Positions 43,497-64,000 of a DNA stretch of 64,000 bases are shown piece by piece. The notes under the pieces are model-generated. The model had not been told where the DNA came from, did no database searches, and was given only the letters and a program-made list of their open reading frames with translations. Position 1 is the stretch's first letter. Each line of letters opens with the position of its first letter. Position numbers and translations under genes: made by a program. Origin of the DNA: an uncultured bacterium. Lineage in GTDB: Bacteria; Patescibacteriota; Saccharimonadia; UBA4664. Location of the stretch: positions 389,916 through 453,915 of the forward strand of contig CAVRET010000001.1 of NCBI GenBank assembly GCA_963720265.1, read 5' to 3'.

Positions 43497-43503
43497 CGCG
43501 ATA

Positions 43504-46203: not shown

Positions 46204-46227
46204 AATCCGTTTTGGTAGAGAACTTGG

Positions 46228-48375: not shown

Positions 48376-48463
48376 ATGTTTAGCAAGGCCTTTGTTAAGC
48401 GCTTATGCTTAGCATGGTAGCGTAGTCATGGCCGGTCGTCAAATCTGCTGTCTGGGGCGGCGC

Positions 48464-48841
48464 TTACTTAAACGAATCGATGATCTCAAGCAGGTCGGAG
48501 AGCGTGATTTCAGCTTTTACAACATAGCCGTCCATGTCGCGGTTAACCTCCGGTGTAACCTTGGACGGGTCGCCGAGGTTGGTGAGGATGACAATGCGCG
48601 TTTTGGTACAACCATACTGGGGGTCATGACGGAGCTCTTTGAGTACTTGGAAACCGTCTTTTTTGGGCATCATAACGTCTAAGAAAATAAGGTCCGGCTG
48701 ATACGATTTGGCGACCGCAAGTCCCTCTTCCCCATCGCCTGCCACTCCGACCTGATAGCCGTGAGACTTTAGGTACAATTCATAGAGATTGCGTAGCTCA
48801 ATATTGTCCTCAACGAGTAGTATTTTTCGTAATCCAGCCAC
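48464..48841 (-). CDS. stand-alone response regulator receiver domain (CheY-like)
   Basis: 125 aa; LLVEDN...D..MP..DG..KELR receiver motifs; no output domain. Confidence 0.85.
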   Translation of the reverse strand: MAGLRKILLVEDNIELRNLYELYLKSHGYQVGVAGDGEEGLAVAKSYQPDLIFLDVMMPKKDGFQVLKELRHDPQYGCTKTRIVILTNLGDPSKVTPEVNRDMDGYVVKAEITLSDLLEIIDSFK

Positions 48842-51002
48842 GACGCCTCCTCACAACGTTACCCTCTGCCTGGTCTGACTGCAGGCCGGCCAGCCGCTCT
48901 TCAGTTAACTTCGGAATGGTGAAAGAAAATGTTGAGCCTTTGCCTTCTTCGGATTCGACCCAAATGGTGCCGTCATGGCGCTCGATAATGGACTTAGCGA
49001 TAAACAGGCCGAGGCCGGTGCCGGTGGATCCTGAGTCGAGGCCGCCGTGCACACGGAAGAACTTGGTGAAAAGGTGGGGCTGGGCGGCTTTGGGGATACC
49101 GACACCGTTGTCCTTGACAGCCACCGTGTAGCGGTCGCCGCTGTCTGTCAGCGAAGCCTCGATGTGGCCGCCGGGCTGTGTGTATTTAACGGCATTGGTA
49201 AGTAGATTGGTGATGACTTCGCGCAGCGCGATTTCGTCAGCCACCACGAAGTTGTCGTGGTCCGGGCCGCCGTAGCTTACGTTCATGTTTCGCTCTTTAG
49301 CCTGGAAGCCGACATCCTTAATGGCCTTGGCCACTGAGGCGGCGAGATCGGTCTTCTCCATATTGAGGGTGAGCGTGCCGCGCTCGATGCGGCTGACGTC
49401 GAGCAAATTATTAATGAGGCTGGAAAGTTCCACCGAGCTTTTGAGTGCCTGGGCCAGATAGTTTGAAATGTCGGGCGGCGCTTTCTTGAGCTTAAAGGTA
49501 ATGAGTTCAATGTAGCCACGGATGGCGGCCAGCGGCGTGCGCAGTTCGTGTGCTGCCATAGATACGAAGTCGAGCTTCATGCTTTCGAACTCACGGCTCT
49601 TGGTTTCGTCACGAATAGTGATGATGGCTTGCCCTGGCTGGAGTTCGGTGCCGGCGAGCCTGGCGACAATAAGCTTGAGGTAATGCCTGGAGCCGGTGGT
49701 GCCGACGTACTCGATGTTGCTGTATGTGTTTGAGCCGGGTGACGCAAAGTCGATGGCAAACGGGGTCTGGTTCGAGGTGAAAGCAAAAATGTCGTGAATG
49801 GAACGGCCGATAATAGCCGAGGCCGGTTTGCCGGCGAGCTCGAGTGCGGCGCGGTTGGCGGTCGTAATTGTGCCGTCCTGGAGCACGGCCAGAATGGAGT
49901 CCGTGGTGGTGTCAAGAATGATGGCAAGGTGATTGCGTTGCGACTCGATGCCGGTCACAAAAGCTTTGAGGCTCTCACGCATCGTGTTGATGCTACTCGC
50001 AAGCACTCCAATTTCATCGCCGCTCGTCACCTCCACCGGCACACTGAAGTCGCCCATACCGATGCGTTTTGATGCTTCAGCAATACGCAAGATTGGGTTG
50101 GTGAATAGGCGGGCTAGATACCAAGCCAGACACATAATTGCCAGGGTACTGAGGATTAAGATCACGATGAGCGCGTTGCGCAGAGCGGCGATTGGCGCCA
50201 GAGCTTCACCGGTTTCAATCATGGTACCAATGGTCCAGTCGGAAAACCCTATTGGCCGGCTCGACACCATGACCGGGTGTCCGGTGTAATTTACGTCCTG
50301 CCCGCGGACAACCGAGTATGGCACAATGTCGCTGGCTGATGTGTTAAAGCGCAGGGGAAACAGTGACACTTGCCTGCCGTCGCTGCCGGGGGCTGTGATG
50401 ACCGTTTCACCAGTGCTACCAAGACCGGTATAGTCGCCTAGCTCTGCTACGAGGTCGTTTACGCTATATACGGCTCGTAGAATGGCCTGATACTGGTCGT
50501 TAATACTTAAGCTTGTGGTGATGTAGAGCTCCTGAAGTCCTGACGATGGGTCAGCCACAACGGCGATATCGGGCCCTTGGTACGTGGCGCTGGCAGACGG
50601 TTTGTTCGGCAATTCTTGGCCGCTTTGACCTGATTCAGTAGAAGCGATGATCGTGCCGCCCTGGTTCGCAACGTGGATATATTGTAGTCCCGAAACTTCT
50701 GACAACCGGCTGTTTAAAATACCGACCACGGCATTTTGGCTGGCCGCTGTGGGCGAGGTTAAGAGCTGTTGGAGTGCTACCTGGAAATCATATTCCTCAG
50801 CCAGCTTGATGACTTCCTGCTGCTTGGCTTGCAGCAGGGCACTAATAGCCTGTTGTTGCTTAATGTCGATGCTGGCAAGTTGGCTTTGAGTGCGCTGGTT
50901 GAGCTGGGTTGAGATAGTGAAAAAGGATACAAGGCTGACGACCAGAGTCGGCACCAGGCCAATGCTTAAGAGAGCGGTAATGAACTTCTGCTGAATATTC
51001 AT
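48810..51002 (-). CDS. sensor histidine kinase (extracytoplasmic sensor domain, HAMP, PAS, HisKA, HATPase_c)
   Basis: 730 aa; two TM helices flank a roughly 250-aa periplasmic domain; H-box SMAAHELRTPLAAIRGY; N, G1 (DNGVGIP) and G2 (GTGLGL) boxes. Confidence 0.9.
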   Translation of the reverse strand: MNIQQKFITALLSIGLVPTLVVSLVSFFTISTQLNQRTQSQLASIDIKQQQAISALLQAKQQEVIKLAEEYDFQVALQQLLTSPTAASQNAVVGILNSRLSEVSGLQYIHVANQGGTIIASTESGQSGQELPNKPSASATYQGPDIAVVADPSSGLQELYITTSLSINDQYQAILRAVYSVNDLVAELGDYTGLGSTGETVITAPGSDGRQVSLFPLRFNTSASDIVPYSVVRGQDVNYTGHPVMVSSRPIGFSDWTIGTMIETGEALAPIAALRNALIVILILSTLAIMCLAWYLARLFTNPILRIAEASKRIGMGDFSVPVEVTSGDEIGVLASSINTMRESLKAFVTGIESQRNHLAIILDTTTDSILAVLQDGTITTANRAALELAGKPASAIIGRSIHDIFAFTSNQTPFAIDFASPGSNTYSNIEYVGTTGSRHYLKLIVARLAGTELQPGQAIITIRDETKSREFESMKLDFVSMAAHELRTPLAAIRGYIELITFKLKKAPPDISNYLAQALKSSVELSSLINNLLDVSRIERGTLTLNMEKTDLAASVAKAIKDVGFQAKERNMNVSYGGPDHDNFVVADEIALREVITNLLTNAVKYTQPGGHIEASLTDSGDRYTVAVKDNGVGIPKAAQPHLFTKFFRVHGGLDSGSTGTGLGLFIAKSIIERHDGTIWVESEEGKGSTFSFTIPKLTEERLAGLQSDQAEGNVVRRRRGWITKNTTR

Positions 51003-52472
51003 TTATTGTGCACTTACAAACGATCCGTCCTTGACTTGCAATAAGGCGTACTGGTAGTTGGTGCCGTCTTCGTCGCCGTTCGCGTCAAACTTAATGTGAG
51101 CCGATACCCCATTGAACGAAATGCTTGGTAGTTTGGACTTGATTTCCGGCCCGGTGGTGGCGCCGTCCTTAACTGCCAGATATAGCGTTTCAAAGGCATC
51201 GTAGCCTTCGGCTGCGGCATACAGTTGCTCTCCTTGATCGTTGGTGTAGAGCAGCTGCTTAAAGGCAGCGGTGCCGGTGGGGAAGGTCGTGAGCGTGAGG
51301 CCCTGAGCGGCAGACTGAGCGCTTGAAATCAGAGTTTGGTCATAGAGGCCGTCACCGCCGAAGAACGGCGCGGTGATGCCGGCGTTCCGGGCGAGCTGAA
51401 TGGCGGCCGCGCCGGTTGTAACTGAGTTTGAAACAAACACTACGCCTTGCGGCTTGGCGGCTTTGATGGCAGCAATTTGTGTTGCCAGGTTGATCACTCC
51501 GGATGGCGCATTAACCGAGGTGAGCACTTTACCGCCTAACGATTGAAACTCCTTGGTGAAGACCGAGTTCATGTTAATGCCGTAGGGCTCGTTGGTGTAG
51601 AAAATGCCGACGGTCTTGACGCCCCGCGCGTAGACGGCCTTGGCAAGATAGGCGCCCTGGTACGTGTCCGGTGGCACCACGCGGAAGAAATAGTCGTTCG
51701 GGATGCTTAGGGACGGGCTGGAGGCCGACGGTGAAAGCATGGGGATTTTGTTGGCATTGGCAAGCGGGAGTGCCGCCGTAGAAGCGCTTGAGCAGCCGTC
51801 ACCAATGACCGCCACTACGTGTTGATTAACAAGGCGCTGCATGGCTTGCGGAGCAACTGTGGGGTCGCACTGTGAGTCCATTTGTACGAGCTCGATGTTG
51901 TCGGCACCGAGTTGCTTTTGGGCGAGCTGAATGCCTTTCATCTCGCCATAGCCCATGCTGCTGGAACCACCGGTAAAGGCCATCATAACGCCGATTTTAA
52001 CCGACGGCAGCACCGCGGCAGGCTTATTTTTGGTCGAAAGATAGGCAAAGGCGGCAAATCCGATGGCAGCTATAACCGCAACAACAACGACCGCGGTAAC
52101 AATGGCCTTTACCGAGAGACCCGGCTTGGCCGACGGAGCGCCCGGCGCTGCCGGAACCGGAGCTTGCGGCGAGACCGTCGGTGCGTCTACCGGAGCCTGT
52201 GCCGGGGATGGCTCCTGCGCGGGACTTGCCGGCGGGGGAGGTGGCATGGGGGCGGGATCAGACGGTGACGGTGCAGGCGTGGATGCGGACTCGGCCGGCG
52301 GGGGAGGTGGTGTTGAGTCGCCTGCGGGTGCCGGGTCCGGAGTCGTCGGCGTGGACGTAGGCCCGTCACTTGACGGAGCCGGCGGATTAATTGGGGCAGC
52401 TGCGGAAGATTCCGGCTGACTCGTAGATGGTTGATCTGGCGTTGAATCAGCCTTTGGTGCAGATGAATCCAT
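51003..52472 (-). CDS. periplasmic binding protein, LivK/branched-chain amino-acid type (Peripla_BP_6), with Pro-rich N-terminal region and TM anchor
   Basis: 489 aa; Pro/Ala/Ser low-complexity N-terminus; TM helix; type I PBP fold motifs (VVAVIGDGCSSASTAALPLANANKIPMLSP). Confidence 0.75.
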   Translation of the reverse strand: MDSSAPKADSTPDQPSTSQPESSAAAPINPPAPSSDGPTSTPTTPDPAPAGDSTPPPPPAESASTPAPSPSDPAPMPPPPPASPAQEPSPAQAPVDAPTVSPQAPVPAAPGAPSAKPGLSVKAIVTAVVVVAVIAAIGFAAFAYLSTKNKPAAVLPSVKIGVMMAFTGGSSSMGYGEMKGIQLAQKQLGADNIELVQMDSQCDPTVAPQAMQRLVNQHVVAVIGDGCSSASTAALPLANANKIPMLSPSASSPSLSIPNDYFFRVVPPDTYQGAYLAKAVYARGVKTVGIFYTNEPYGINMNSVFTKEFQSLGGKVLTSVNAPSGVINLATQIAAIKAAKPQGVVFVSNSVTTGAAAIQLARNAGITAPFFGGDGLYDQTLISSAQSAAQGLTLTTFPTGTAAFKQLLYTNDQGEQLYAAAEGYDAFETLYLAVKDGATTGPEIKSKLPSISFNGVSAHIKFDANGDEDGTNYQYALLQVKDGSFVSAQ

Positions 52473-52627
52473 AATGCCTATGCTTTTAATTATGTGGTTA
52501 TCTTAGGAAAAATGACGGTGCGGTGTCAAATGGTTGGCTGCGCTTTTTATGGTTTTGCGATATAGTAGGCCGTGCGTCGTTTGTAGTACCGATTCAGATC
52601 TAGGCGATCCGAGAACAGGAGAGTGCG

Positions 52628-53284
52628 GTGGAAGATATCCCCCCGAGTGGGGTGGCCGAACGGCTCAAGGCGCTGCCTAAGATAACTGCGTATACGCCGG
52701 TGGATTCTAGCACAATGGGGCCGGGTACAGCGGAGCTTTTGATGATGCCGCCAAACCTCAAGCGGGCACTCCTCATGCGATCCGAGCGCCCGAGCTTGCC
52801 GCAGCGGCCGGGGCGTGAAGCCGTTACGTGGTGGGGCGTTCAGGCGCCACTGCTGGCTCACGCGTGCGGTATTGTGTGCGAAACGGCGATTGTTCTCGAG
52901 GGCAGAGGACTGGGCTGGTGCGGGCAGCCCGACTGTCAGCTCGACGAACGTGACCTCTATCCGGTGGCGGCAGTCGCGTTCTACCAGGGACCGCCCGTAG
53001 CGGAGCTCAGAAATCGGGGCATCGATGAAGCAGCGGGGTTCTCGGTGCTCGTGAGATACGGCAAGGCAGGGCCGCGCGGTACCCACTATGTGGTTACCCA
53101 CTGCTCTCCCTTCGCGGTTAGCTACGGCTACTGCAATACGGGAGAAATCCGTGCGCTGTTCGCGGATGCCGAAGGGGTTGATTCATTTCCGAGATGGGCA
53201 TGGACTCACCCCGAGGAGTCGGAGCGGGTGGCCATGGTTACGGCGACACTGCTATTGCGGGAACTGGCCCGCCACATTCAGTGA
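52628..53284 (+). CDS. hypothetical protein (GTG start with AGGAG RBS)
   Basis: 218-aa ORF; AGGAG sits 6 nt upstream of GTG 52628; the overlapping minus-strand ORF is Arg-rich antisense-type junk. Confidence 0.45.
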   Translation: MEDIPPSGVAERLKALPKITAYTPVDSSTMGPGTAELLMMPPNLKRALLMRSERPSLPQRPGREAVTWWGVQAPLLAHACGIVCETAIVLEGRGLGWCGQPDCQLDERDLYPVAAVAFYQGPPVAELRNRGIDEAAGFSVLVRYGKAGPRGTHYVVTHCSPFAVSYGYCNTGEIRALFADAEGVDSFPRWAWTHPEESERVAMVTATLLLRELARHIQ

Positions 53285-53355
53285 TCAAGCTTTACGGCGA
53301 AGGAGGTGCGCCGATGGTCATCCTCCAGGGCCGTCTAGATACTCTAGGCGGTCTT

Positions 53356-53916
53356 TTACAAATATGCGGCCGCTGTGATCAGGACTAGGCCAAAGGCAAC
53401 ACCCGCAACTTGCTGGGCTGCAAACAATACGTGCAAACCGCCCAGATTCAGTGCGAGCAGGCTGGCGCCGACGATTTGCATGACCAGTAACAAGTACATG
53501 AGGCGGTCATGGCGGATTTTTGCCACCAAGTAGATACCAAGTAACAGTTCAAAGCTGACCAGGATCATAAATGTGCGCGCATGGACTTCATTCCAAAAAT
53601 GGTTGACGAGGTAGGGATAGGTGCTCATGAGGACGCAACCCAGGAGGAAAGCGAGTATGTACAGACTTATCCTTACCACATTTACCGGTTTTGGCTGATG
53701 CGGCAAAAGCTTAGCGGCGTAAGCGGTAAGTAGCGCACTTAGCACAAATGCCAGTGTATAGGGTACAACGGTCAGCGGCCGGGTGCCGTAGTTGGACACC
53801 CCGCCTTCGGTTAACACATAATGCGGGATCAGGGCGTAGCATATGACTAGGAAACTAAGCAGACTCGCCTGCCCATAGGCTAGTTTTTGCTGGATGGGGT
53901 TACGGCGCACGGACAT
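53356..53916 (-). CDS. polytopic membrane protein, hypothetical
   Basis: 186 aa; 5-6 hydrophobic helices. Confidence 0.55.
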   Translation of the reverse strand: MSVRRNPIQQKLAYGQASLLSFLVICYALIPHYVLTEGGVSNYGTRPLTVVPYTLAFVLSALLTAYAAKLLPHQPKPVNVVRISLYILAFLLGCVLMSTYPYLVNHFWNEVHARTFMILVSFELLLGIYLVAKIRHDRLMYLLLVMQIVGASLLALNLGGLHVLFAAQQVAGVAFGLVLITAAAYL

Positions 53917-53960
53917 GACGACACCTCTTGTTGTGCGAGATCATTTGTTATCGATGACGG

Positions 53961-54227
53961 CTACCGCTCGAGGTTATGCAGCTCCACTTTTGCCTGTTCG
54001 AGTACCGCCCGATGCTCATCGCTGAGGTTCTTTCCGGCCCGGTTAACATAAAAGTTCAACATGGACATGGCAGATTGGCCCACCGTCCCTTTGCGGCGCC
54101 GACTCCGCTGGGCCGACCGGAGAAGAGATTCTGCGATTTTTTTGGGGTTGTCCCAGGTAAACACTCCCGGCTCTAAGTCGAGGGCGTTACTGTGCTTGAT
54201 AACCTCGCCTGACCATTTCTCGCTCAT
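53961..54227 (-). CDS. DUF3175 family protein
   Basis: 88 aa; KHSNALDLEPGVFTWDNPKKIAESLLRSA pattern. Confidence 0.55.
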   Translation of the reverse strand: MSEKWSGEVIKHSNALDLEPGVFTWDNPKKIAESLLRSAQRSRRRKGTVGQSAMSMLNFYVNRAGKNLSDEHRAVLEQAKVELHNLER

Positions 54228-54273: not shown

Positions 54274-54486
54274 CTATTCGAGCCGTTCCCCAACCCATTC
54301 AAAAGTTTCGTTGAAGCTTGCCAAACTGCGATAGGTCATGATCGAACGGCCGGCCCAATCGGGACGAGTGAATAACGGGGTGTAAACGGCGACATCGTCA
54401 TTTACATTGTCGTGATGATGGGCCAGGCCCATGAAGAGATATTTGAGCTCTGGATGCTTCCGGTGTTTGTAGATTCCTGGTTTCAT
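54274..54486 (-). CDS. DUF1653 family protein
   Basis: 70 aa; MKPGIYKHRKHPELKYLFMGLAHHHDN...VAVYTPLF...W.RSI pattern. Confidence 0.55.
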   Translation of the reverse strand: MKPGIYKHRKHPELKYLFMGLAHHHDNVNDDVAVYTPLFTRPDWAGRSIMTYRSLASFNETFEWVGERLE

Positions 54487-54566
54487 GCACTCAAGTATAA
54501 GTTAATGGGTAGATAAATAAGCTGCATTCATTCGAAATCTTTTTGCAATGGTCGGGGGCATTTCGT

Positions 54567-55421
54567 CTATGTGGAGCCTTCTTGATTGTTGCGGTTGCGT
54601 GCTTTCTTGGCGGCCCGACTACCCCTAATCCTGGCCCACAATTTGCCCGCACCAGCAGCCGCATCGGCGGCCACATCGGCGCCCAGCAACGCTCCCGGGG
54701 CGGATATAGAAGAATCCGGCACATCGCCGAGACCTTGCCCTGCTTGCGAGGCGGCTCTCGAAAAACGGCGTCCGCCGCGCTCAGCGTTCGCGGCAGCCTG
54801 CGCAATATCTGGATTGGTTTCTCGCCCGTATTCTTCGATATCGGCACGGGCCAGAGCAGATCTTTGTTCACTATCCAGGCGGTTTAACGCCTCAGCCGCC
54901 GCTTGGCGGCGGGCACGGACTTGTTGCGGGGTCTCCATGGCACTGCCCTGGGGTGTCTCGAGTTGGCGCGGTGCCGGGTCCATATCGGCCATTGCCGTGG
55001 CTATCTGCTCGCGGAAATGAGCTTCCACGTCCGTGTAACGCTTGGCTGACGCCGGATCCATATTAGCTAGTTTTTCGGCTCGCTCCTGAGCTGCACGTTC
55101 AGCATCGCGGGCGCTCGATTCCAATTGGTAGTCCATGAAATCGCCGGGTAGAGTCGGATCTCGTGGCAACCCAAGCTCCTGAGCCCGTTTCGCGGTTAAG
55201 TGGCGCTCGCCGGATTGGTGGAGCTCCGCCAGTCCAGCACGGAGGGGATCGGCAGCTTCGGCCATATCCCTGGCAGTGCTGGGGTCGGTTACGACACCCT
55301 CTTGCGCTACTTTGTTAGTCGCGGCGTATTCGGACGCCATGCCTGCAAGTTCTTCGGCAGAATGGAACTGTGCTGGCTGATCAGTCTCAGTCGACTGGGG
55401 GCCAGATTCGCGATTGCTCAT
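54567..55421 (-). CDS. hypothetical charged, low-complexity protein
   Basis: 284-aa ORF; Ala/Glu/Arg-rich; GC about 62%. Confidence 0.4.
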   Translation of the reverse strand: MSNRESGPQSTETDQPAQFHSAEELAGMASEYAATNKVAQEGVVTDPSTARDMAEAADPLRAGLAELHQSGERHLTAKRAQELGLPRDPTLPGDFMDYQLESSARDAERAAQERAEKLANMDPASAKRYTDVEAHFREQIATAMADMDPAPRQLETPQGSAMETPQQVRARRQAAAEALNRLDSEQRSALARADIEEYGRETNPDIAQAAANAERGGRRFSRAASQAGQGLGDVPDSSISAPGALLGADVAADAAAGAGKLWARIRGSRAAKKARNRNNQEGST

Positions 55422-55931
55422 GGGCCTTAAGCTCCGATTGTAATTGTGGTTATCTTAGCATGTGACTGCGTGGTGGCCTCATCCGATATATCAGAACATA
55501 ACCACACTCATAAATCGTGACTGCTTTTTGTGCCACCGCCTAATGTAAACATAAGCATAATTTCTTGGTGCGCTTGACGCACCTTCATTCGAACACCTTT
55601 TGAGATCGCTTGATTATGGCAAGTGTTCAATTGAGTTTAAACACCCTCGCAAAAAACCTGCCAGGGATTACATATTAGGACGCCGGTACATTGGAGGGCT
55701 TCAATGCGCAAGGACCTTGAAGCCGCCTCTGAGATTAAGCGTGATAGATACGACGCCAGGTATCATGGGCGACACCCGAACTGTACCCCCCCTCACGATT
55801 CTGAATGAAACGTAAGCCATGTCGCTGATCTTCACCGTTTTCTCTTTCGGCCGCGGCCATATAAGACTGCGGATCGTCAAAGTCACCGTACCAAGCTGGC
55901 GCCGGGCGATACCTTGACTCCCTGACGCTCA

Positions 55932-56432
55932 TTAAAAGTTGTTTACAACGGTCCGTGCAATTTGTTCTTCAGTCGGCTGAGAAGGGTTACCGTTTTGGTC
56001 AGACTCACTTATGGTGGCCACGTCATCTCCCTCCACGAATGACAGCTGCCCCTTTCCATAAAAAGCTGTGTCACCTATTCCAGATATGGGTACGTTAGGC
56101 TGAAAGTATGACTTTAATCCGTCAAACTGATTCTGTGGATCCGAATACTTATCCACTTGGACCAGGATGTTGGCGACTTCGCCGGCAGAATAAGTACATG
56201 AACTTGTAGTTGAAGCAGAGGCCGTAGCTGAAGATCCCAAGATAGCCTGGACGTCTGTCAGGGTGAAAAGCTGGCAGGCAGTTTTTGCAGTCGTTATCGA
56301 AGCCGATCCCGATGCCGTTGCGGAGCTACTGTTGGTAGTCGTTCCCGAGGACGTAGATGAAGTTTCGCTACTGGGACTACTTAGACAAAAAGTGTTAGGT
56401 CTACTGGGGCTTAATATAAATCGCGATGACAA
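55932..56432 (-). CDS. secreted Ser/Thr-rich protein, possible lipoprotein
   Basis: 166 aa; hydrophobic N-terminus ending in Cys; long S/T-rich linker; two further Cys. Confidence 0.45.
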   Translation of the reverse strand: MSSRFILSPSRPNTFCLSSPSSETSSTSSGTTTNSSSATASGSASITTAKTACQLFTLTDVQAILGSSATASASTTSSCTYSAGEVANILVQVDKYSDPQNQFDGLKSYFQPNVPISGIGDTAFYGKGQLSFVEGDDVATISESDQNGNPSQPTEEQIARTVVNNF

Positions 56433-56466
56433 CCTTTTGACATTTATACAATAAAGTGTCCAAAGA

Positions 56467-56766
56467 TTACCCTAGTAATGCTGCTACGCCGTGCTCGTGG
56501 ACGATATTCAACAACTTTAGGGCCGCCCCGTCTGGGTGTGTTTTCCCACTCTCCCACTTTTGAGCCGTTGTAACGCCGACGTTCAGCACCTTAGCCCAAA
56601 CACTCCGGCTAAGCTTTAGCTCTTCGCGTAGCTGCCTAATTTGCCCAGGGGTTAGCTCCCGAACGGTTGGTAAAGCCAGCGCTTCAAGCTTGTCCATGGT
56701 AATTTTATCTACCTTGGCATCGTTTGCCGCTTCAAGTACCACTTCCATGACAGTCTTGCCGTCCAT
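56467..56766 (-). CDS. higA: HigA-type antitoxin (XRE-family HTH DNA-binding protein)
   Basis: 99 aa; HTH LTPGQIRQLREELKLSRSVWAKVLNVGVTTAQKWESG; lies immediately downstream of the toxin gene (toxin-first order typical of higBA). Confidence 0.75.
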   Translation of the reverse strand: MDGKTVMEVVLEAANDAKVDKITMDKLEALALPTVRELTPGQIRQLREELKLSRSVWAKVLNVGVTTAQKWESGKTHPDGAALKLLNIVHEHGVAALLG

Positions 56767-56769
56767 TGT

Positions 56770-57150
56770 CTATTCCTTTCCTTTCGTTATCTCTACAATT
56801 GCCTTCGTTTCAAGACGAGGGGTTAAGTCAGCATCGCTTAAATTAAGATAGAATTTCCCAAGCTCCTTTAGTGCAGTTTTCTCTCTTTGGGTAATGTTGT
56901 CGCGATCACTTTTCTCAAATGCGTAGAGGAAGAAAGTTCTCCTGTGGGCTGAGTAAGCGAGTAACGTTCTTACGCTTCCGCTCTTACCTCTACCTTTCGT
57001 TGCTATGCGCTTCTTGAAAAGGTTCCCGCCTAAGTTTGCTTCGACGTTGCCCTTCTCGATGTCATTAACCGCTTCGCACAATAGCCCATCAGTTAATTCA
57101 TTGCTTTGGGCCCAGCTATAAAAACGTTTGATCGCGAATACTCTCATCAT
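56770..57150 (-). CDS. higB: HigB-type RelE/ParE-superfamily mRNA interferase toxin
   Basis: 126 aa; KRIATKGRGKSGSVRTLLAY...FFLYAFEKSDRDNITQREKTALKEL typical of the HigB/YgjN family. Confidence 0.75.
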   Translation of the reverse strand: MMRVFAIKRFYSWAQSNELTDGLLCEAVNDIEKGNVEANLGGNLFKKRIATKGRGKSGSVRTLLAYSAHRRTFFLYAFEKSDRDNITQREKTALKELGKFYLNLSDADLTPRLETKAIVEITKGKE

Positions 57151-57414
57151 TGCCCGCTCTATCCTTAGATACTATATCCTTTAAGGCTATATGTCAAGAG
57201 ATGCGCAGAATAACTGTATGCGTAGCAGACCTTTGCATCCTCACAAAAATACCGCCTCTGACGTGCGGTGTTTTTGTGGGAAGCACTATACTTATTTGGA
57301 TAACTCATTTGGTGCCCTTGAACGACATTCATTTGAACTCTTTTTGCAATGGTTGGATGCTTTTCGTCAAGGTTTTGAGGGGGAATCGCGATGACTGGCA
57401 ATTTGACTTATTTT

Positions 57415-57632
57415 TCAGAAAGTGTCCAAGGATTTTATGCCCAATGCGTCCTTTATGTTTTCCAACTTCTCAAACGAAGGGTTTTCCTCCCCTCTTTCGA
57501 TGCGGGCATAGTAGTTGCTATTAACCCCCGCCTTGGCCGCAACTTCCGACTGTGTCAGGCCGGCCTGTTCGCGGCTTTTTTAAGCTTTTCGCCAAGCTCT
57601 TTGCGCCTATTTTCTTGATCTTTGGTAGCCAT
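57415..57632 (-). pseudogene. XRE-family HTH regulator with a single-base frameshift (near 57560-57575)
   Basis: Manual minus-strand translation: MATKDQENRRKELGEKLKKAANRPA*; the next frame continues GLTQSEVAAKAGVNSNYYARIERGEENPSFEKLENIKDALGIKSLDTF*. 218 nt = 72 codons + 2. Could be a sequencing error. Confidence 0.45.
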
Positions 57633-57729
57633 ATATGGATAACTATACCATTTAGCCCAGGTTCTCATCATTCGTAGGCGGTATCGTCGTCAATCCGGTG
57701 GGGATGTTTGGACGATTATCGGATTATTT

Positions 57730-58228
57730 GTGCTGGGCGCTATTTATCATAAAGGATACATGCACCCGCTTGAAGAGTGGATACTTTTGGCGCTAGGTGC
57801 AGTCGCGACAGTGTCAGTTAGTGTTGTCTTTGCGTGGTTATTGCAAAAGATTCGAAATCAACGCGCACACTCTCAGTATGCCGACGGCTTGGCCTTTGAA
57901 AAATACATATGCTATTCTTCCCCGTCTCGGATTTACTGGCGTAAAGCTAACCGAGCGCTACGATTTGGGCGTCGACATTATTGCACAGAAGGACAGTGTT
58001 GTTTGGGGCATACAAGTTAAACATTATCAGGGGTTAGTTAGGGCTTCTGCTGTGCGGCAAGTGGTTACGGCGTTGCGGACGTACGGATGCGATCGCGTCA
58101 TGGTGGTAACTAGCGGTAGGTTTAGCCGTCCTGCGATTCAGCTTGCCTCAAGCAATAGATGTGTTTTAGTTAGCGGTCACGAGCTGGCCCGGTGGATTTC
58201 AACGTCGCGCACAAAAGCTAAACGATAG
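57730..58228 (+). pseudogene. Mrr-like type IV restriction endonuclease (N-terminal TM + Mrr_cat domain), frame broken near 57905-57925
   Basis: Frame 1: MLGAIYHKGYMHPLEEWILLALGAVATVSVSVVFAWLL...ADGLAFEKYI. Frame 3 continues ...AILPRLGFTGVKLTERYDLGVDIIAQKDSVVWGIQVKHYQGLVRASAVRQVV...VMVVTSGRFS (Mrr catalytic core D..(x)n..VK). 499 nt = 166 codons + 1; the break is in or near a C4 run. Confidence 0.5.
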
Positions 58229-58250
58229 CTATCGAAGGTTATTGTAGGTG

Positions 58251-59198
58251 TTATTTTACTGTTATCTTCTTAAAGCCTAGTTCCAGGGTATATCGGGCCA
58301 GCCTTCTAATGAGTCCTTTCAGCAGGTTCGGGATAAATGAATCGACCATCCATAATGAGACGATGGCAAACAAAACAACGAGGTAATTGTTTTTTATGAT
58401 ATCGATTAACACTCTAGGTTTGTAGTTCAGAATACTAAAGGTGAAATAGGTGAAAAGTACAGCACTGCAGTAGAAAATTATTGACCATCTACTGGCTTGG
58501 TATTCAAATATCCTAAGTTTTTGACCTTCAGATTTTTCGGGAGAATTCTGACCTTCATAAGATGCTCCTGATTGGTCGCTCATCACTATCTTCTCCTGAT
58601 CAAAGAATGGGTCGTAGTCGTACTTTGTTCCAGAGACAACAAAAAGGCATGCCGTAAGTACAGCTACGGTGGCTTTTGAAACAGTCCTCAGAAACCTGCG
58701 CCAAAACCACAGTTTTATCCTGAGGCAGAATCCTAAGAATGGTCTTGTGGTCTTTAGATGCAGATTATAAGCATACGTGAGTACATCAAGACCCGTGACA
58801 GCCTTGTCATTTTTGAATATTTCATTTTGTTCAGGATCGTAGACATAGTCATCTGTCACATTGATATCGATGGGATCATGGGCGGATGTTTCCTCGCCCG
58901 TTCTGATCTTGATTCCGCCGGCGTGCATGACCCCGAATGTTGCATCAACGAAGACCGGGTATAATCCATCCCTTTTATTATCAACCAATGTGACTCTAAT
59001 AAGGCTGGCTTCTTTACGGCCCTTGCGGCTATGCCTAACACTAAAACCAACCTGATCATCCAGATACGGGATAAAGTCTGAGAACTCACTCCCAGCAATA
59101 TCAAAGAGGTCCAGAAAATCAGATTTTATTTTCTTATCGACTAGTACCTTCATGATTCGATTATCCGTTTCACTATTTGTCGTGATCAATAAGTACAC
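58251..59198 (-). CDS. hypothetical two-domain protein: roughly 170-aa soluble N-domain plus C-terminal multi-TM region; lowest GC in window (about 40%)
   Basis: 315-aa ORF; hydrophobic helices near VAVLTACLFVVSG, WSIIFYCSAVLFTYFTFSIL and LVVLFAIVSLWMV; no family recognised. Confidence 0.55.
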   Translation of the reverse strand: MYLLITTNSETDNRIMKVLVDKKIKSDFLDLFDIAGSEFSDFIPYLDDQVGFSVRHSRKGRKEASLIRVTLVDNKRDGLYPVFVDATFGVMHAGGIKIRTGEETSAHDPIDINVTDDYVYDPEQNEIFKNDKAVTGLDVLTYAYNLHLKTTRPFLGFCLRIKLWFWRRFLRTVSKATVAVLTACLFVVSGTKYDYDPFFDQEKIVMSDQSGASYEGQNSPEKSEGQKLRIFEYQASRWSIIFYCSAVLFTYFTFSILNYKPRVLIDIIKNNYLVVLFAIVSLWMVDSFIPNLLKGLIRRLARYTLELGFKKITVK

Positions 59199-59451
59199 AT
59201 GGCTGGGCTGGCTTGCACTCTCTAAGGCGAAGGATTGTTTATTTTACTCTTTTGCGAGCAAGTTTTACCAGCTCTGCGTCGCGTTCGTAAGCACGCAGCC
59301 GACCGCTCAGGTAACCGAGACGATGATGAATTCCGTCGCTCATCAGTCGCCAGTTAGTGTCAGCTAGGGCCTCCTCGACCATCTTCTTGAGTACATTTCG
59401 GCTATCATGGCCGCTACTGCCGTCCGCCCGGAGTGACAGCTACAATGGGGA

Positions 59452-59929
59452 CATGTCAGAACGTGACGTATTTGATCCCGACAAGCGCAGAGCTGTGATG
59501 TCTTCAATCAAGAGCAAAGGGTCTGAGGCAGAGAGTATAGTATTTGCGTACTTACGTGGCGAACGCATCTATTACCAGAAGCACTACCCGAAAGCCCCAG
59601 GATCGCCCGATATCGCGTTACCTCGAAAGCGCATCGCAGTATTTATTGATGGTGACTTCTGGCATGGCCATGACTACGAAACCCGCGTAAAGCCGCGACT
59701 TTACAAAGAATGGTGGCGCAAGAAAATTTCAGAGAATATGGACAGGGATGTGCGCCAGTACGCCGAACTTGAGGCAAGGGGTTGGAAGGTGCTGCGGGTA
59801 TGGGAGAGCGACATTTTGCGGAAGCGCACCAGGCCGGCAGCACTTGAGCTGGTGAAGAAGTTTTTGCGTGGTCAAGCGTCGTCTTTAGCCGACTCCGATG
59901 CTTCAAAGGCTGATTCTGGAACCGATTGA
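59452..59929 (+). CDS. vsr: very-short-patch repair endonuclease
   Basis: Start MSERDVFDPDKRRAVMSSIKSKGSEAESIVFAYLRGERIYYQKHYPKAPGSPDIALPRKRIAVFIDGDFWHGH closely parallels E. coli Vsr (SK.TKPE..VR..L...G.RYR......PG.PDIV....K..IFVHGCFWH). Confidence 0.85.
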
Positions 59930-60510
59930 CCTCTCTCCAATAATTCAATTATTTTTGCTTCAGTATATAGGCCGGGTGGCAACTTATCCGCCCATGCGCG
60001 GCCGGGATGGAGTGTATCCCAAGATGATTTCTTCTGACCGCTTCGACCACCGCCGGGAGCGTGATTTCCGAAGCCGTCGATGCTGACATTCCATAAAGGC
60101 TTGAATCTGTTAATCATTAGGGACTCGGCCAGTGGAATCCAGATATCATCAACCACTAAATATCGGCAATAAAAATCTTCCTCACTGAGGTTTTTCGCAG
60201 ATGTAACAGACCCAAGATGTTGCTTAATCCGTGAGTAGAGAGAGCTTCCGGTAGTGTCGATCTCGAGCCCTTTTCGTGCACCTTTTGGCACAGCCTTCCC
60301 AACGTAAATTGGCGTGGCATCGTCGCCGGTCAGGTCTTTGGTCGAGATGTGCTTGTAAGCTGGAAAATCTCCGGCGTAGTAGATTGCGTATATCCCCGCA
60401 CCACTAAATGGGCGGAGCTGGGTCATTTTCTGCGGTGGCTCAGCGAGAAGCTGGCTAACGACGCTTTCGGCTAGGTTCGTTTTCTCAAGCGGATTATAGG
60501 GCTGGTTCAT
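59872..60510 (-). CDS. Eco29kI-family GIY-YIG type II restriction endonuclease
   Basis: 212 aa; GIY (Y41)...28 aa...YVG (Y69); R94-x3-H98; E129-x11-N141. The spacings match the published Eco29kI catalytic residues Y49/Y76/R104/H108/E142/N154. Confidence 0.7.
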   Translation of the reverse strand: MNQPYNPLEKTNLAESVVSQLLAEPPQKMTQLRPFSGAGIYAIYYAGDFPAYKHISTKDLTGDDATPIYVGKAVPKGARKGLEIDTTGSSLYSRIKQHLGSVTSAKNLSEEDFYCRYLVVDDIWIPLAESLMINRFKPLWNVSIDGFGNHAPGGGRSGQKKSSWDTLHPGRAWADKLPPGLYTEAKIIELLERGQSVPESAFEASESAKDDA

Positions 60511-61660
60511 TAACTAGCAGGTCCTTTACGGATGACGCGACGGCTCGCGCCAAGCCAACGGGTACCGCATTTCCGAGCTGTCTCATACTTTCGGTCCATG
60601 AGACAGGAAAGATGTACTCGTCAGGGAAGGATTGGATACGCGCACTTTCACGCACGGTGAAGTAGCGTACCGAGCCGTTCGGTAATGCTAGCATATTTTC
60701 CCCTCCCGGAACACCATGGCCGCCGGCCTTGATCGTCTTGGAGGGCTCATCATATTCGCTGCCGGTGTGTCCTGGGTAAATCTTCGCGCCAGGATTGAAC
60801 TTGTGATTAAGCACTTTGTTGTGCTTGTGTTGCGGGTGCGGCAGGTCTGAGATCGCGTCACGCACGGTTCGCCAAGCCTTGCCAGCTCCGGTAATCGTCT
60901 CGCGATCAGCGGCTTCGGCGATAACTTCACGAGTGTACGGCATTACTCCCCTATCTTTCAGAGGTACTTTGTGTCGATCCCAGTATTCACCTGTGAGCCA
61001 TTTGTCTCTCAAGAGTGCCGCGCGGGAGTGTGTTGGGCGCGGGAAACTCCATTCGAGATTCAAGTCATCTCGGAAACCAACAAATATCACACGTTCGCGC
61101 TTTTGGGGTACACCATAATTCGCGGCATTCAAAAGTTGCGTAACAACCTTGTACTCAAGTGTCTTGCCCGCCGTAAAGTATCGCTCGAGCCGCGAGAGGT
61201 GATCTTCCCAACTTTCATTATCTCGCCTGCCTAGACTTGGGTACGAAAGCTGTAGTTCAATATACTTGAAGTAACTTCGAAATGACGCCCTAGTCAGGCC
61301 TTTAACGTTTTCAAATATGAAGGCCTTAGGCCGCAGCTCCCGGACGGCTCGGACGGATTCCGGAAACATGTCGCGAGTGTCATTGTACGCTCCGTGTTTA
61401 CCGCCCAGCGAGAATGGCTGGCAGGGCGGGCCCCCGCTTAGCAGGTCCAACTCGCCGGAATAAACTGAGTAGTCGATGTCCCGGACATCCGCCTCTACGA
61501 TGTCCCAGCTGGTAATCGGGTGTACTTTCTCGGCCTGGTTGTGGCGAAGTGTGACACATGACTCACGATCCCACTCGATAAAGGTTTCCGTTTGAAAGCC
61601 CACAGAATCAATGCCCATAGAGAGCCCACCAGCACCACCAAAAAGCTCAATACATCTCAC
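60494..61660 (-). CDS. DNA (cytosine-5)-methyltransferase
   Basis: 388 aa; motif I LFGGAGG; motif IV GGPPCQPFS; motif VI ENV; C-terminal target-recognition domain; 17-bp overlap with the restriction-enzyme gene. Confidence 0.9.
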   Translation of the reverse strand: MRCIELFGGAGGLSMGIDSVGFQTETFIEWDRESCVTLRHNQAEKVHPITSWDIVEADVRDIDYSVYSGELDLLSGGPPCQPFSLGGKHGAYNDTRDMFPESVRAVRELRPKAFIFENVKGLTRASFRSYFKYIELQLSYPSLGRRDNESWEDHLSRLERYFTAGKTLEYKVVTQLLNAANYGVPQKRERVIFVGFRDDLNLEWSFPRPTHSRAALLRDKWLTGEYWDRHKVPLKDRGVMPYTREVIAEAADRETITGAGKAWRTVRDAISDLPHPQHKHNKVLNHKFNPGAKIYPGHTGSEYDEPSKTIKAGGHGVPGGENMLALPNGSVRYFTVRESARIQSFPDEYIFPVSWTESMRQLGNAVPVGLARAVASSVKDLLVNEPAL

Positions 61661-61866
61661 AGCATCCCTCCAGTGTTATCTACAATATAGCATAACCGAA
61701 TGAAAGCCGTACTACAATAGAATAAAGACGAGCCTTTCGGCCCGTTAAGCGATAGCCAAAATAGATTGATAACTTCTGGTACCTGCAAGTACTAAAAAAT
61801 TCCACCTCACAGCGGCCATCACCCTAGTTATAGTGTCTTCCCGATTTAATCACAAGCATTATGGTG

Positions 61867-63876
61867 TTAGGTAACGGCAGCCTGTTCGGGCTGTAAATCA
61901 CTTTTCTCGAGATGATTTTCATTATTAATTGTTTTGAGTAAACTTTCTGATTTTGCGGTCAACTCATCCCGCAGGTATTGGTGATTCAACTCAAAACGCT
62001 CCAGCACTTGTGACCAGGTCAAGGCATAGCCTCGGAAGTTGTCCCCCGCTGTGAAGATCAAATCCGGGTCGCCAGTTACTTTAAGGTTGTCTTTTAGGCC
62101 CTGGATGTAACCATCGGTAGCGTAGTCGTTGCCAATGACGTAGAACTTCCAGTCGCTATCAGGACTATTAAACCTATCTTCTTTGAAGATAAGTTGTTGA
62201 TAGCTGAACAATTGGTCGAAGTCCTTTTTGCTCAAGTTTTTTGAGGCTCTTTTAAGCTCGGTGACCAAATGTTCAAATTTGTGACCATTCTTCCTCTTGC
62301 GGCAGGCGAAGATATCCATCTCTTTGTTCTTATCTTGATGTTCGATCCGTGGTTTTGATTTCGCAGGTGTCTCCCTAAACTCGAGAATTCGCCGGAGCGC
62401 CTCTTCGAAGTCTGGCTCTTCTGCTGTAATCAGTTGATACTGTTCGTCAACAATCCAAAGCTCACTCTCGACTATCCGTTGAATGTCTTTTTCTTTTGAG
62501 GTCTGCTCAAAATCAAAACAGATCCGTTTAAGGTTTTCGTACACTTCGTACCTGTCGCTAACTAATTGTGCCAGTTTTGTCATCCCATCTAACGAGACCT
62601 TGTCGAGCAACCTGACGAGCCTACTTCTATCTCCCTCTTCCATCTCGAGTAGGCTACCAATCACTGTCATTAAATCATCTCTGGCTTTTCCGCTCGCAAT
62701 CATTGAAGACAACAGCCGTCCGAAGATAACGCGCTGTTCGTTGCCAAGGTTTGCGAAAATCCTGGGCTCGATCTTAAAGAGCTCTTCAATGAGCTCTTTA
62801 GTGTATTCAGCCTGTAGGCGCTGAATAGGCGTAGCGCCTTCTTCCAGCCCCAAGATTGCCCCTTCCTTGGCGTATTCGTTCGATGTCTTTTTGGAAAGGT
62901 CTTCAAGAAAAGGCTTGCGTTTATCGCGCAAGAACTTCACAACAACTTCGACTAAGAATTCGTACGCTTGCGACTCCCGGCCGGCGCCAAACTCTAGTGC
63001 GGTTTGCTCCGGTTTATTTTCGCCGAAATCAAAATCATTGAATAGACCACTCCTGATGTAGACAGAGTGGTAGAATTTATCCCCCTTGTTATTCAGCTTG
63101 GTGGTTTCTTTAAACAGTTCAATACTGGACGAGTTCAGATAATAAAAACTGGAGTATTCGGGATGGGGCAAGTGACCCCATTGAACAAAAACTACCTCAA
63201 ATTCATTGCCTGTGGGCTCGTGCATGACCGTAAAGCTTGAGCTGTCGGTAGCAATAGACTTATCGGCCAATACGCAATCTGCATCTATTATTGCCGACCC
63301 AACAGTGATGCTTTTTGTGGGATCAAGGACTAGGAACCAACCAAATTCGCGCTTCACGTAAGTTTCCAAAGATTGCGCTAAAGCATCAGCGCTTGTCTCC
63401 ATGGAGATTTCAGTGAATTCGACAGTGGTTCCTGTATTCGCGGATGACACAGTCGGATCGGTGGGATCGTAATCTTCAAGGTTGCTCGCATTAACTGTTA
63501 TGTTGTATTGCAATTTGTTGGATTCAGACTCGTAAATCGTGTGCCAAACGGCTTGTCCTGCAAACTTGATAAATGCGAATCGTCCGTAGCCATTGTTGCC
63601 ATGGGGAAGCGAGTGATGTTTTTCCTTGGTTTTCTCTGATTCGTAAAAAGGTCGAAACTTATTGCGGAGTTGGTCTGACGGAATGCCGAAGCCATTGTCG
63701 GTGACCTTTATCGCTCCTATTGCACCGAGCTCATTCAGGGTTTCAATCTCAACCTTAATGTGGGTAGCGCCTGCATCGAACCCGTTCCAGCAGTACTCGG
63801 CCAAGGCGTCGTGATAGTGTAGGCCACTAAGAACCTTCTGGATTCCCTGGGTTTTAATCTGGATTTTAGCCATATG
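61867..63876 (-). CDS. GHKL-family ATPase (HATPase_c_3-type N-domain) with large uncharacterised C-terminal region
   Basis: ORF 61867..63957; start MAKIQIKTQG at 63876 preferred; N-box ALAEYCWNGFDAGAT; G1 box VTDNGFGIP; roughly 500 aa of unrecognised helical sequence follows. Confidence 0.65.
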   Translation of the reverse strand, partial: HMAKIQIKTQGIQKVLSGLHYHDALAEYCWNGFDAGATHIKVEIETLNELGAIGAIKVTDNGFGIPSDQLRNKFRPFYESEKTKEKHHSLPHGNNGYGRFAFIKFAGQAVWHTIYESESNKLQYNITVNASNLEDYDPTDPTVSSANTGTTVEFTEISMETSADALAQSLETYVKREFGWFLVLDPTKSITVGSAIIDADCVLADKSIATDSSSFTVMHEPTGNEFEVVFVQWGHLPHPEYSSFYYLNSSSIELFKETTKLNNKGDKFYHSVYIRSGLFNDFDFGENKPEQTALEFGAGRESQAYEFLVEVVVKFLRDKRKPFLEDLSKKTSNEYAKEGAILGLEEGATPIQRLQAEYTKELIEELFKIEPRIFANLGNEQRVIFGRLLSSMIASGKARDDLMTVIGSLLEMEEGDRSRLVRLLDKVSLDGMTKLAQLVSDRYEVYENLKRICFDFEQTSKEKDIQRIVESELWIVDEQYQLITAEEPDFEEALRRILEFRETPAKSKPRIEHQDKNKEMDIFACRKRKNGHKFEHLVTELKRASKNLSKKDFDQLFSYQQLIFKEDRFNSPDSDWKFYVIGNDYATDGYIQGLKDNLKVTGDPDLIFTAGDNFRGYALTWSQVLERFELNHQYLRDELTAKSESLLKTINNENHLEKSDLQPEQAAVT

Positions 63877-64000
63877 GTAGCTCGCTTTAGATTGATTGTA
63901 TGGTATCTGTTCGCATTTGCAAGATGTCAGGGGCTTGTCTCTCCCCTCTCTTCCCATGGTAAGGGCAGCACGTGATGCGTCAAGGTCGTTCCAACCAGGT

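Follow-up and report, generated by a model that had tools for sequence, protein, structure and literature searches.

The low-GC region at the 3' end of the 64,000-nt stretch analysed here (the window; contig CAVRET010000001.1 of an uncultured member of the Saccharimonadia) runs from position 55422 to the last base, and is probably a horizontally assembled accessory patch (55.4-64.0 kb) that continues past the window and holds four working modules and two decayed genes. The modules would be a RelE toxin with a helix-turn-helix (HTH) antitoxin, a type II restriction-modification (R-M) operon with Vsr, a paraMORC3-type nuclease with a GHKL ATPase domain, and a membrane protein of 300 residues; the decayed genes would be an XRE-family regulator and a membrane-anchored Mrr-type nuclease. 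Taken as a whole, the patch is an ordinary defence/addiction island of known kinds of systems, partly decaying, in a reduced genome. It probably represents a mosaic of separately acquired modules and not a region acquired as one unit. The one feature that could prove new is a series of repeat-delimited units at its left edge. The activities of the encoded proteins and the recognition site of the R-M system are predictions from sequence.

Composition, extent and genomic context

The patch is clearly set apart by its base composition from the remainder of the window (positions 1-55421), which was used as background. Its GC content is 0.476, compared with 0.564 in the background; stretches of equal length (8579 bp) in the first 55 kb have a mean of 0.5636, a standard deviation (SD) of 0.0067 and a minimum of 0.548, and the patch lies about 13 SD under such stretches. 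In a 500-bp profile the GC content falls below 0.50 at about 55.25 kb and then stays between 0.40 and 0.55 through the last base, and in a 2-kb profile it is 0.52-0.59 throughout the DNA upstream of the patch. Codon usage follows the same trend, with a GC content at third codon positions (GC3) of 0.44-0.56 in patch genes versus 0.63-0.72 in rpoB, rpoC, the histidine kinase gene and the binding-protein gene; sliding-window GC and GC3 thus both deviate in 55422-64000. An initial annotation, made from the sequence without database searches, had described a fall in GC content from about 60%. The fall is real and the profile is not uniform, but the background is about 56%, not 60%.

The proposal that the patch continues past the window holds, since the GC content is still low at the last base, where only 127 bp are left upstream of the GHKL start codon. 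This short segment contains promoter-like sequences (TTGCAA-16-TACAAT at 63922-63895 and TTGACG-16-TACCAT at 63983-63956) and short open frames that run off the window end, and a further minus-strand gene may have its 3' end here; a search of JGI metagenomes with the last 41 nt gave no exact match. The left edge, placed initially at 55422, stands as a compositional step but not as a structural boundary. A run of repeat-delimited units spans 54.5-57.4 kb, so that 55422 is where one unit gives way to another rather than the true left limit of the structure. Synteny with the nearest relative is already lost at about 52.5 kb, and judged against that genome the variable region would start there.

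This nearest available relative, assembly ERZ26871208, is a single genome with 68-82% nucleotide identity in shared genes. Around the island it shares with the window only a binding-protein/kinase/regulator block (window 48457-51994, 68% nucleotide identity), and on the island side of this block it carries unrelated small open reading frames (ORFs) instead of the island genes. Its RelE/HTH pair (79% nucleotide identity) is located about 38 kb away, in another context with insertion sequence (IS) fragments, and its homologue of the 284-residue ORF at the left edge of the patch (82% nucleotide identity) is found at a contig end, beside RHH/PIN pairs. In this comparison with one fairly distant genome, a weak test of synteny, the island is not conserved as a unit. 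Four lines of evidence point to a horizontal origin: the deviation in GC and GC3; the GHKL protein, whose nearest relative is only 53% identical and lies in an unrelated context, and whose family is scattered; the restriction of shared sequence to the 48457-51994 block, with different genes at the island position; and the displacement of the relative's RelE/HTH pair, which lies amid IS fragments at a distance of about 38 kb.

Over 13,434 bp the window is matched with 100% identity by an independent Logan assembly of run ERR11523669. The 25-kb contig of this assembly breaks off at 63927, 54 bp upstream of the point where GHKL translation starts, and a repeat or a strain-variable junction may lie just past the break.

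The initial statement that no integrase lies inside the window agrees with the Pfam scans and the searches with recombinase seeds. No integrase was found by Pfam in the large ORFs of 40117-54227 and 54567-63957, in scans that left out two short ORFs (54274-54486 and 55735-55932) as well as the gene of the response regulator near 48.5 kb. Twelve seeds for tyrosine and serine recombinases, DDE and IS110 transposases and reverse transcriptases matched no window ORF, albeit with limited sensitivity. The window contains no tRNA or tmRNA gene, no Rfam family at gathering or E<=1 thresholds, and no direct repeats that bracket the low-GC region. Phage or conjugation genes could not be identified in the visible 8.6 kb by Pfam or PHROG.

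Gene content of the patch

Every gene named in the initial annotation could be located using the ORF list, Pfam, PADLOC and NCBIfam (Table 1). Both composition and gene content match its reading of the region as a defence/addiction island, with a toxin-antitoxin (TA) pair, a type II R-M system with Vsr, a GHKL-nuclease, and decayed XRE and Mrr genes.

Table 1. Features of the low-GC patch and its left edge (window coordinates)
Feature	Position	Strand	Evidence or remark
Repeat, partial copy	54525-54572	-	nhmmer E 2e-8, model positions 64-107
284-aa ORF	54567-55421		Stop codon overlapped by partial repeat copy
Repeat, degenerate copy	55552-55628	-	nhmmer E 3e-6; blastn 79% over 38 nt
65-aa hypothetical ORF	55735-55932	-	ORF list; called as gene in Logan contig
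166-aa Ser/Thr-rich ORF, TTG start	55932-56432	-	GC3 0.44
Antitoxin, 99 aa, HTH_3/MqsA-like, XRE-type	56467-56766	-	Pfam HTH_3 E 3.5e-8, MqsA_antitoxin 31 bits
Toxin, 126 aa, RelE family PF06296	56770-57150	-	Pfam E 3e-39, full-length 1-120/120
Repeat, full copy between XRE gene and toxin gene	57285-57430	-	nhmmer E 5e-40
XRE-family HTH gene, two frames	57418-57632	-	-1/+2 frameshift near 57570-57580
Membrane-anchored Mrr-type (Mrr_cat) nuclease gene	57760-58228	+	1-nt frameshift at about 57909
300-aa membrane protein	58251-59153	-	Soluble N-terminal half, C-terminal transmembrane helices
Vsr very-short-patch repair endonuclease	59498-59929	+	Pfam E 9e-22; PADLOC Vsr E 4e-17
Eco29kI-family (GIY-YIG) type II restriction endonuclease	59872-60510	-	Pfam RE_Eco29kI E 6e-61, 205 bits
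C5-cytosine DNA methyltransferase	60494-61660	-	Pfam DNA_methylase E 1e-59, 203 bits
668-aa GHKL protein	61867-63873	-	Pfam HATPase_c_3 E 4e-16
Upstream of GHKL gene to window end	63874-64000	unassigned	127 bp

The GHKL ATPase-nuclease

The protein initially annotated as a GHKL-ATPase is present and can now be resolved as an ATPase-nuclease fusion, with an N-terminal GHKL ATPase domain, an S5-like middle domain, a helical linker and a C-terminal PD-(D/E)xK nuclease domain. Its true start is MAKIQ, and the exact 668-residue product is on record. A search of 5.8 billion proteins gave 231 homologues. Those listed, 120 in all, have lengths of 646-700 residues and cover 94-100% of the query; the closest among the matches listed has 53% identity and is found in an unrelated context. 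In alignments of 27 and 120 sequences the GHKL motifs E26, N30, D33, D59xGxG and G92/G95/G97 are invariant. The nuclease residues D520 and E539-x-K541 are likewise invariant, and together with E486, found in at least 90% of the 120 homologues, they form the PD-(D/E)xK motif. The AlphaFold (AF2) model (pLDDT 85, pTM 0.74) superposes over 320-450 columns on the ATPase modules of Hsp90 (N+M), GyrB (43K), MutL (LN40) and MORC3/4. The best Foldseek matches of the modelled residues 441-668 are the nucleases FokI, NucS, HamA and Cap4, with weak E-values of 0.01-0.2. HSDR_N_2 matches occur in 18 of 19 family members, and the whole protein matches phrog_6203 over its full length (E 9e-62).

A bacterial and archaeal group of sporadic distribution, paraMORC3, has been described that combines a GHKL domain, an S5 domain and a nuclease of the restriction endonuclease fold with an E-D-ExK motif; its members are found beside R-M, Dcm or Vsr genes, beside methylase genes, or standalone (Iyer, Abhiman & Aravind 2008, PMC2292703). 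By its predicted domains the GHKL protein has the paraMORC3 architecture, and its placement in this group is based on architecture and context. A second relationship is with VcSduA of V. cholerae (Shedu type I-D), which gives direct anti-phage protection at all multiplicities of infection tested, requires E27 and K557, and needs no partner for its action in E. coli (Adams et al. 2025, PMC12137116). VcSduA and the published members of its family were compared over the first ~400 residues, i.e. without the nuclease domain. An hhalign comparison with the VcSduA-family profile gave a probability of 98.3% (E 1e-14; residues 5-280 aligned to 4-297) at an identity of about 16%, and E26 aligns with the essential E27 of VcSduA; the single VcSduA sequence gave a probability of 61% against the GHKL family profile. 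The signature EYIWNGFDA of the GHKL family occurs in none of the 543 published VcSduA hits. Pfam SduA_C (PF14082) is found below threshold in six of 19 relatives (best E 4e-4), and weak PADLOC SduA matches occur in eight of 27. At the level of sequence profiles the protein is thus remotely homologous to VcSduA, but it belongs to a family of its own that the published model does not cover. Its direct assignment to Shedu was rejected, since Pfam SduA_C, PADLOC SduA, the PDB profile search (no match of the C-terminal domain at E<=10) and Foldseek failed to single out Shedu. Mza (MzaB) and the other GHKL-containing systems of PADLOC gave no meaningful match. No experimental study of the GHKL-nuclease family turned up in the sources searched.

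Relatives of the GHKL protein are found in at least 284 GTDB species representatives from many phyla, including archaea. The family is scattered over Bacteroidota, Firmicutes, Pseudomonas, the candidate phyla radiation (CPR) and archaea, with distant copies on plasmids and in Pasteurella phages. Gene neighbourhoods were counted for 80 loci from GTDB species representatives, with R-M genes sought within 6 kb. An R-M-like neighbour was present in at least 23 of these, and an hsdR-like neighbour cluster in 17. In 14 loci the GHKL gene is immediately preceded by a gene of the hsdR family, and in seven of these 14 it is directly followed by hsdS (examples, most of them continuing with hsdS: L004, L008, L015, L016, L020, L034, L038, L043, L045, L052 and L056; see also L096). 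The stops and starts of hsdR, the GHKL gene and hsdS overlap or abut (gaps of -17 to +29 bp), and co-transcription with the restriction system is therefore suggested. In the nearest clade, one member is flanked by hsdR and an hsdM/S gene fusion, a second comes after a type III Mod-PIN-Res operon, and a third (P0005) is located in a prophage-like region with terminase, ParB and integrase genes. The closest homologue (L083 5598-9248; also L084-L086) is encoded 28 bp downstream of a 552-residue RVT_1 reverse transcriptase, with a 520-residue serine recombinase nearby; this reverse transcriptase is absent from all 80 other GHKL loci. A conserved partner could not be identified, as the methylase, Vsr and Eco29kI-type nuclease of the window are almost never neighbours (methylase in two of 80 loci by blastp).

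We propose that the GHKL protein is most likely an autonomous ATP-gated nuclease that tends to lodge beside R-M systems. The GHKL and middle domains would dimerise on ATP and clamp DNA, thereby gating the C-terminal PD-(D/E)xK nuclease, and foreign DNA would be cut directly without host killing, as for the remote homologue VcSduA. Partners outside the view are possible, as the initial annotation had suggested, but they are not required, relatives often being standalone or located within or next to R-M systems of types I, II and III. In the window the GHKL gene lies 206 bp upstream of the methylase gene on the same strand, with promoter-like hexamers upstream of it and terminator-like hairpins downstream, at chance-level frequency. 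We infer that the nuclease is independent of the neighbouring R-M system.

The restriction-modification system with Vsr

The presence of Vsr and of an Eco29kI-family restriction endonuclease with its C5-methyltransferase, as initially annotated, was borne out by Pfam, PADLOC and NCBIfam. Vsr exceeds the cut-off of TIGR00632 (103.8 versus 97.85 bits), and its translation shows the motif FIDGDFWHGH. The Eco29kI-type nuclease is also matched by PADLOC REase_II (E 4.5e-65), and a GIY...YVG motif can be seen in its sequence. The methylase matches PADLOC MTase_II over its full length (E 1e-125) and TIGR00675 with 180 bits, and its motifs FGGAGG, GPPCQPFS and ENV are intact. The Pfam scores of nuclease and methylase exceed their cut-offs of 30.8 and 22, respectively. 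The stop of the methylase gene overlaps the start of the nuclease gene by 17 bp, indicating that the two genes form an operon; the Vsr gene is convergent with the nuclease gene, and their 3' ends overlap by 58 bp. The C5-methylase would protect host sites, the nuclease would cut unmethylated incoming DNA, and Vsr would repair the T:G mismatches that arise from deamination of 5-methylcytosine.

Site avoidance was considered as evidence of R-M activity and rejected: CCGCGG, the Eco29kI site, is undepleted in the window, with 31 occurrences observed and 32.6 expected. The sequences ATGCAT, TACGTA and CACGTG are three- to four-fold depleted in the window, at small counts, which may reflect other restriction systems outside the view.

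The toxin-antitoxin pair and small left-end ORFs

The genes initially named HigB/HigA form a TA pair with HigBA-like gene order and an HTH antitoxin, but the toxin belongs to the RelE family PF06296 and not to the HigB family. PF06296 is the sole Pfam match of the toxin at E<=0.01; the HigB-type model gave no match, and neither did any toxin model of NCBIfam. The toxin gene lies 3 bp upstream of the antitoxin gene (toxin-first order), and is itself preceded by a promoter-like sequence (TTGACA-17-TAGTAT at 57197-57169), of a kind that occurs at chance frequency. The antitoxin matches NCBIfam TIGR03830 with E 4e-11, under the cut-off of that model, and its 90%-identity cluster has a member in the relative genome. 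By inference from its family, the antitoxin would neutralise the toxin and repress the operon, and the pair would stabilise the locus or halt growth under stress. In the relative's copy (contig L088 9675-10302) only the antitoxin is called as a gene; the toxin region, with 79% nucleotide identity, has no called ORF, and the toxin may have decayed. This copy is flanked by rve and IS110 transposase fragments.

The two small ORFs to the left of the pair are less clear. The 65-residue ORF has no PHROG match. The 166-residue ORF shows a weak sub-threshold match with DUF3558 (Pfam E 0.008), and the gene caller of the Logan contig placed an antisense ORF of 63 residues in its stead; its status as a gene is uncertain, and it may be a truncated lipoprotein-like gene.

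Two frameshifted genes and a membrane protein

Two genes of the patch are disrupted in the sequence, as initially annotated. The second XRE gene is split over two frames: three-frame translation reads MATKDQENRRKELGEKLKKAANRPA up to a stop, followed in another frame by KSREQAGLTQSEVAAKAGVNSNYYARIERGEENPSFEKLENIKDALGIKSLDTF, again up to a stop, and the shift adjoins an A6 run and a C run. It is either a pseudogene or an assembly error. In the Mrr-like gene, the Mrr_cat domain (Pfam E 1e-20) lies on the 3' part, and the N-terminal transmembrane helix and the motif GLAFEKYI are in a different frame; deletion of one T at the shift restores FEKYIAILPRLGFTGVK. Both frameshifts are reproduced base for base in the Logan assembly, possibly from the same reads.

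The membrane protein, annotated initially with 315 residues, is present with 300. It has no match in Pfam, NCBIfam, PADLOC or PHROG, and is the only patch component without a described close family. A family could nevertheless be assembled around it, comprising 265 cluster representatives at E<=1e-3, mostly of 290-310 residues and aligned end to end. Its alignment is too variable for a locus scan, and the two contigs available for context, both under 2 kb, have no shared neighbour.

Repeat-delimited units at the left edge

The units at the left edge are delimited by a conserved repeat with a 34-nt core, CCATTGCAAAAAGAGTTCRAATGAATGTCGTTCA, and a full length of about 145 nt (copies of 80-145 nt). 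Apart from the copies in Table 1 there is a very weak trace at about 56.44 kb, and the repeat is found nowhere in the 64-kb window beyond 54.5-57.4 kb. The full copy is 83-94% identical to copies in a contig of the relative (L087), which carries four direct copies at 790-935, 2964-3038, 3965-4110 and 5420-5561; another 41 kb of the relative's DNA contains none. The core is identical in four JGI metagenome contigs (L090-L093), three of which, all short, hold two copies each, 0.7-1.0 kb apart. No match was found in Rfam or in viral contigs.

The units between the repeats are co-oriented and about 0.7-2.2 kb long, and they contain RelE/HTH, RHH/PIN and MazEF-like pairs, a GNAT gene and small ORFs. 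At least two direct repeats less than 4 kb apart thus delimit co-oriented cassettes, as in arrays of the integron type. Collinearity of the window with L087 around the 284-residue ORF ends exactly at the repeat, and the units that follow differ.

Weighing of horizontal assembly against other explanations

Several observations weigh against a patch assembled horizontally from the modules described above. Its mobility is deduced only from composition and distribution, as searches of the window gave no integrase, transposase or tRNA gene and no direct repeats that bracket the region. The comparison involves one fairly distant relative with generally poor synteny, so that absence at the syntenic position is a weak test. 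The repeat is lineage-specific and occurs in both low-GC and normal-GC DNA, which suggests long residence or a different mechanism of assembly. The undepleted CCGCGG speaks against long-term restriction pressure at that site, or else the specificity of the R-M system may differ. With respect to the nuclease module, the GHKL protein of the window has no match to Pfam SduA_C/DUF4263 (PF14082) or PADLOC SduA, and the 50 best matches that Foldseek gave for its nuclease domain include no Shedu structure.

The visible genes might also be the cargo end of a larger integrative element (a prophage remnant, an integrative and conjugative element or an integrative island) with its recombinase beyond 64000. 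The low GC up to the last base, the mere 127 bp left upstream of the GHKL gene, and the break of the Logan assembly at 63927, as expected at a repeat or strain-variable junction, would fit such an element, as would two close GHKL family members, P0005 in its prophage-like region (terminase, ParB, integrase) and P0002 beside a large serine recombinase. We regard this as a possibility, though a rather unlikely one, given that the visible 8.6 kb are devoid of phage and conjugation genes and that the left side grades into small repeat-delimited units without an att-like end. Somewhat less likely still is that the XRE and Mrr-type genes are intact in the organism and that their frameshifts are systematic sequencing or assembly errors. 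The position of the XRE shift beside the A6 and C runs argues for error, as do the Nanopore-style contig names ('_np1212') of a related assembly and the possible origin of the Logan contig from the same reads, for which reason sequencing error may lie behind both shifts. On the other hand, both are identical in the output of an independent assembler, and the shift in the Mrr-type gene consists of one additional T within an ATAT sequence, outside any homopolymer.

Two further explanations concern single parts of the patch, and we consider both improbable. The GHKL-nuclease may not be autonomous but part of a composite paraMORC-type system with the adjacent C5-methylase and Vsr, in which methylation would serve as the mark of self. 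Its gene lies close upstream of the methylase gene on the same strand, paraMORC neighbourhoods are enriched in cytosine methylases and Vsr (Iyer et al. 2008, PMC2292703), and R-M genes adjoin the GHKL gene in at least 23 of the 80 family loci, in some cases with overlap of the reading frames. However, the methylase is already paired with its own overlapping Eco29kI-type nuclease, about 70% of the family loci have no detectable R-M neighbour and only three of 80 have a C5-methylase, and VcSduA, the remote homologue, acts alone in E. coli (PMC12137116). The terminator-like hairpins between the GHKL and methylase genes and the promoter-like sites upstream of the GHKL gene, weak and at chance level, point in the same direction. 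As for the left part (about 54.5-57.7 kb), it may be an integron-like cassette array without integrase (CALIN-like) that extends left of 55422, in which the repeat would be a recombination site that shuffles ~1-kb units between genomes. This would account for three clear direct copies and a very weak one, 0.8-1.05 kb apart and co-oriented with the genes; for the four direct copies in L087 and the two in each of three JGI contigs, with none in the relative's other 41 kb; for units made up of RelE/HTH, RHH/PIN and MazEF-like pairs, GNAT and small uncharacterised ORFs; and for the end of homology with L087 around the 284-residue ORF exactly at the repeat. An attC-like reading of the repeat was rejected, however, because single-stranded DNA folds and RNAalifold gave no convincing structure. 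Minimum free energies are -4 to -17 kcal/mol for 91-167 nt, without a convincing hairpin; z-scores of the folds lie between -2.05 and +1.1 over seven copies, with one copy reaching -2; and RNAalifold proposes 17 pairs without covariation. Canonical R''/R' boxes are not evident, and no IntI-like gene was seen in the window scans with recombinase seeds, which have limited sensitivity.

Horizontal assembly of separate modules therefore remains our preferred explanation for the patch. It is improbable, though conceivable, that the left island and the DNA leftward of it form a cassette-exchange array of a kind undescribed for Saccharibacteria and CPR bacteria; if they do, accessory and defence genes in reduced genomes would be assembled either by an integron-like system of divergent type or by another mechanism of site-specific recombination. 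Nothing relevant on integrons in Saccharibacteria or Patescibacteria was found in the library searched.

The left flank

The left flank (40-55 kb) encodes an MFS transporter, ClpP, a HAD hydrolase, trigger factor, a ricin-lectin protein, a kinase and a binding protein. The lectin protein (46228-48375, minus strand) has 715 residues with four to five ricin-type beta-trefoil lectin repeats (Pfam E 9e-68), and could be a carbohydrate-binding surface protein for attachment to host cells. The binding-protein gene (51003-52472, minus strand) can be read with an N-terminal extension of about 75 residues that is rich in Pro, Ser and Ala and of low complexity; gene callers give a shorter version of 414 residues, and several antisense ORFs overlap the GC-rich stretch of this gene. 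Homologues of the binding protein (52-59% identity) carry the names Candidatus Saccharimonadales or Saccharimonas. The rpoC product shares its 90%-identity cluster with no other sequence in a set of 15 billion proteins. The window thus probably stems from a poorly sampled lineage of the Saccharimonadales (CPR).

Implications

A very small and probably episymbiotic genome here gives at least 8.6 kb, beside a core of rpoBC, trigger factor and ClpP, to defence and addiction, with two of the genes decaying. The GHKL family is large and conserved over its full length, is present in at least 284 species representatives as well as in phages and plasmids, and often resides within R-M operons of type I. 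Despite its VcSduA-like architecture it escapes the current models of Shedu, VcSduA and PADLOC, and it is a well-defined candidate for testing.

Comparison with known systems

The individual modules can each be compared with a described system. The R-M operon resembles the Eco29kI system in its GIY-YIG nuclease of the RE_Eco29kI family and its overlapping C5-methylase gene, and a Vsr gene is typically found beside 5-methylcytosine methylases; it differs in gene order, the methylase gene being placed before that of the nuclease, and CCGCGG, the site of Eco29kI, is not depleted in the window. The TA pair shares with HigBA and RelE modules of type II the toxin-first operon, the small toxin of the RelE superfamily and the XRE-type HTH antitoxin. 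Unlike in HigBA, the closest models of the antitoxin are MqsA-like and NadS-like, all below family cut-offs. The repeat-delimited units are similar to CALINs in having direct repeats at a spacing of about 1 kb, co-oriented small units rich in TA genes, and neighbouring units that differ between related genomes, whereas the repeat of the window lacks an attC-like hairpin and clear R/L boxes, and IntI was not found.

For the GHKL protein two comparisons can be drawn. VcSduA has nearly the same length (673 versus 668 residues), the same domain order and a comparably placed nuclease lysine (K557 versus K541), but identity is only about 16%, and the window protein falls outside the published family hits and is missed by the SduA_C and PADLOC models. 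With paraMORC3 it shares intact ATP-binding motifs, an S5-like middle domain and an E-D-ExK nuclease domain, as well as a sporadic distribution over bacteria and archaea in loci that are R-M-linked or standalone. As judged from these features, the GHKL-nuclease would add a new member to an architectural class already described.

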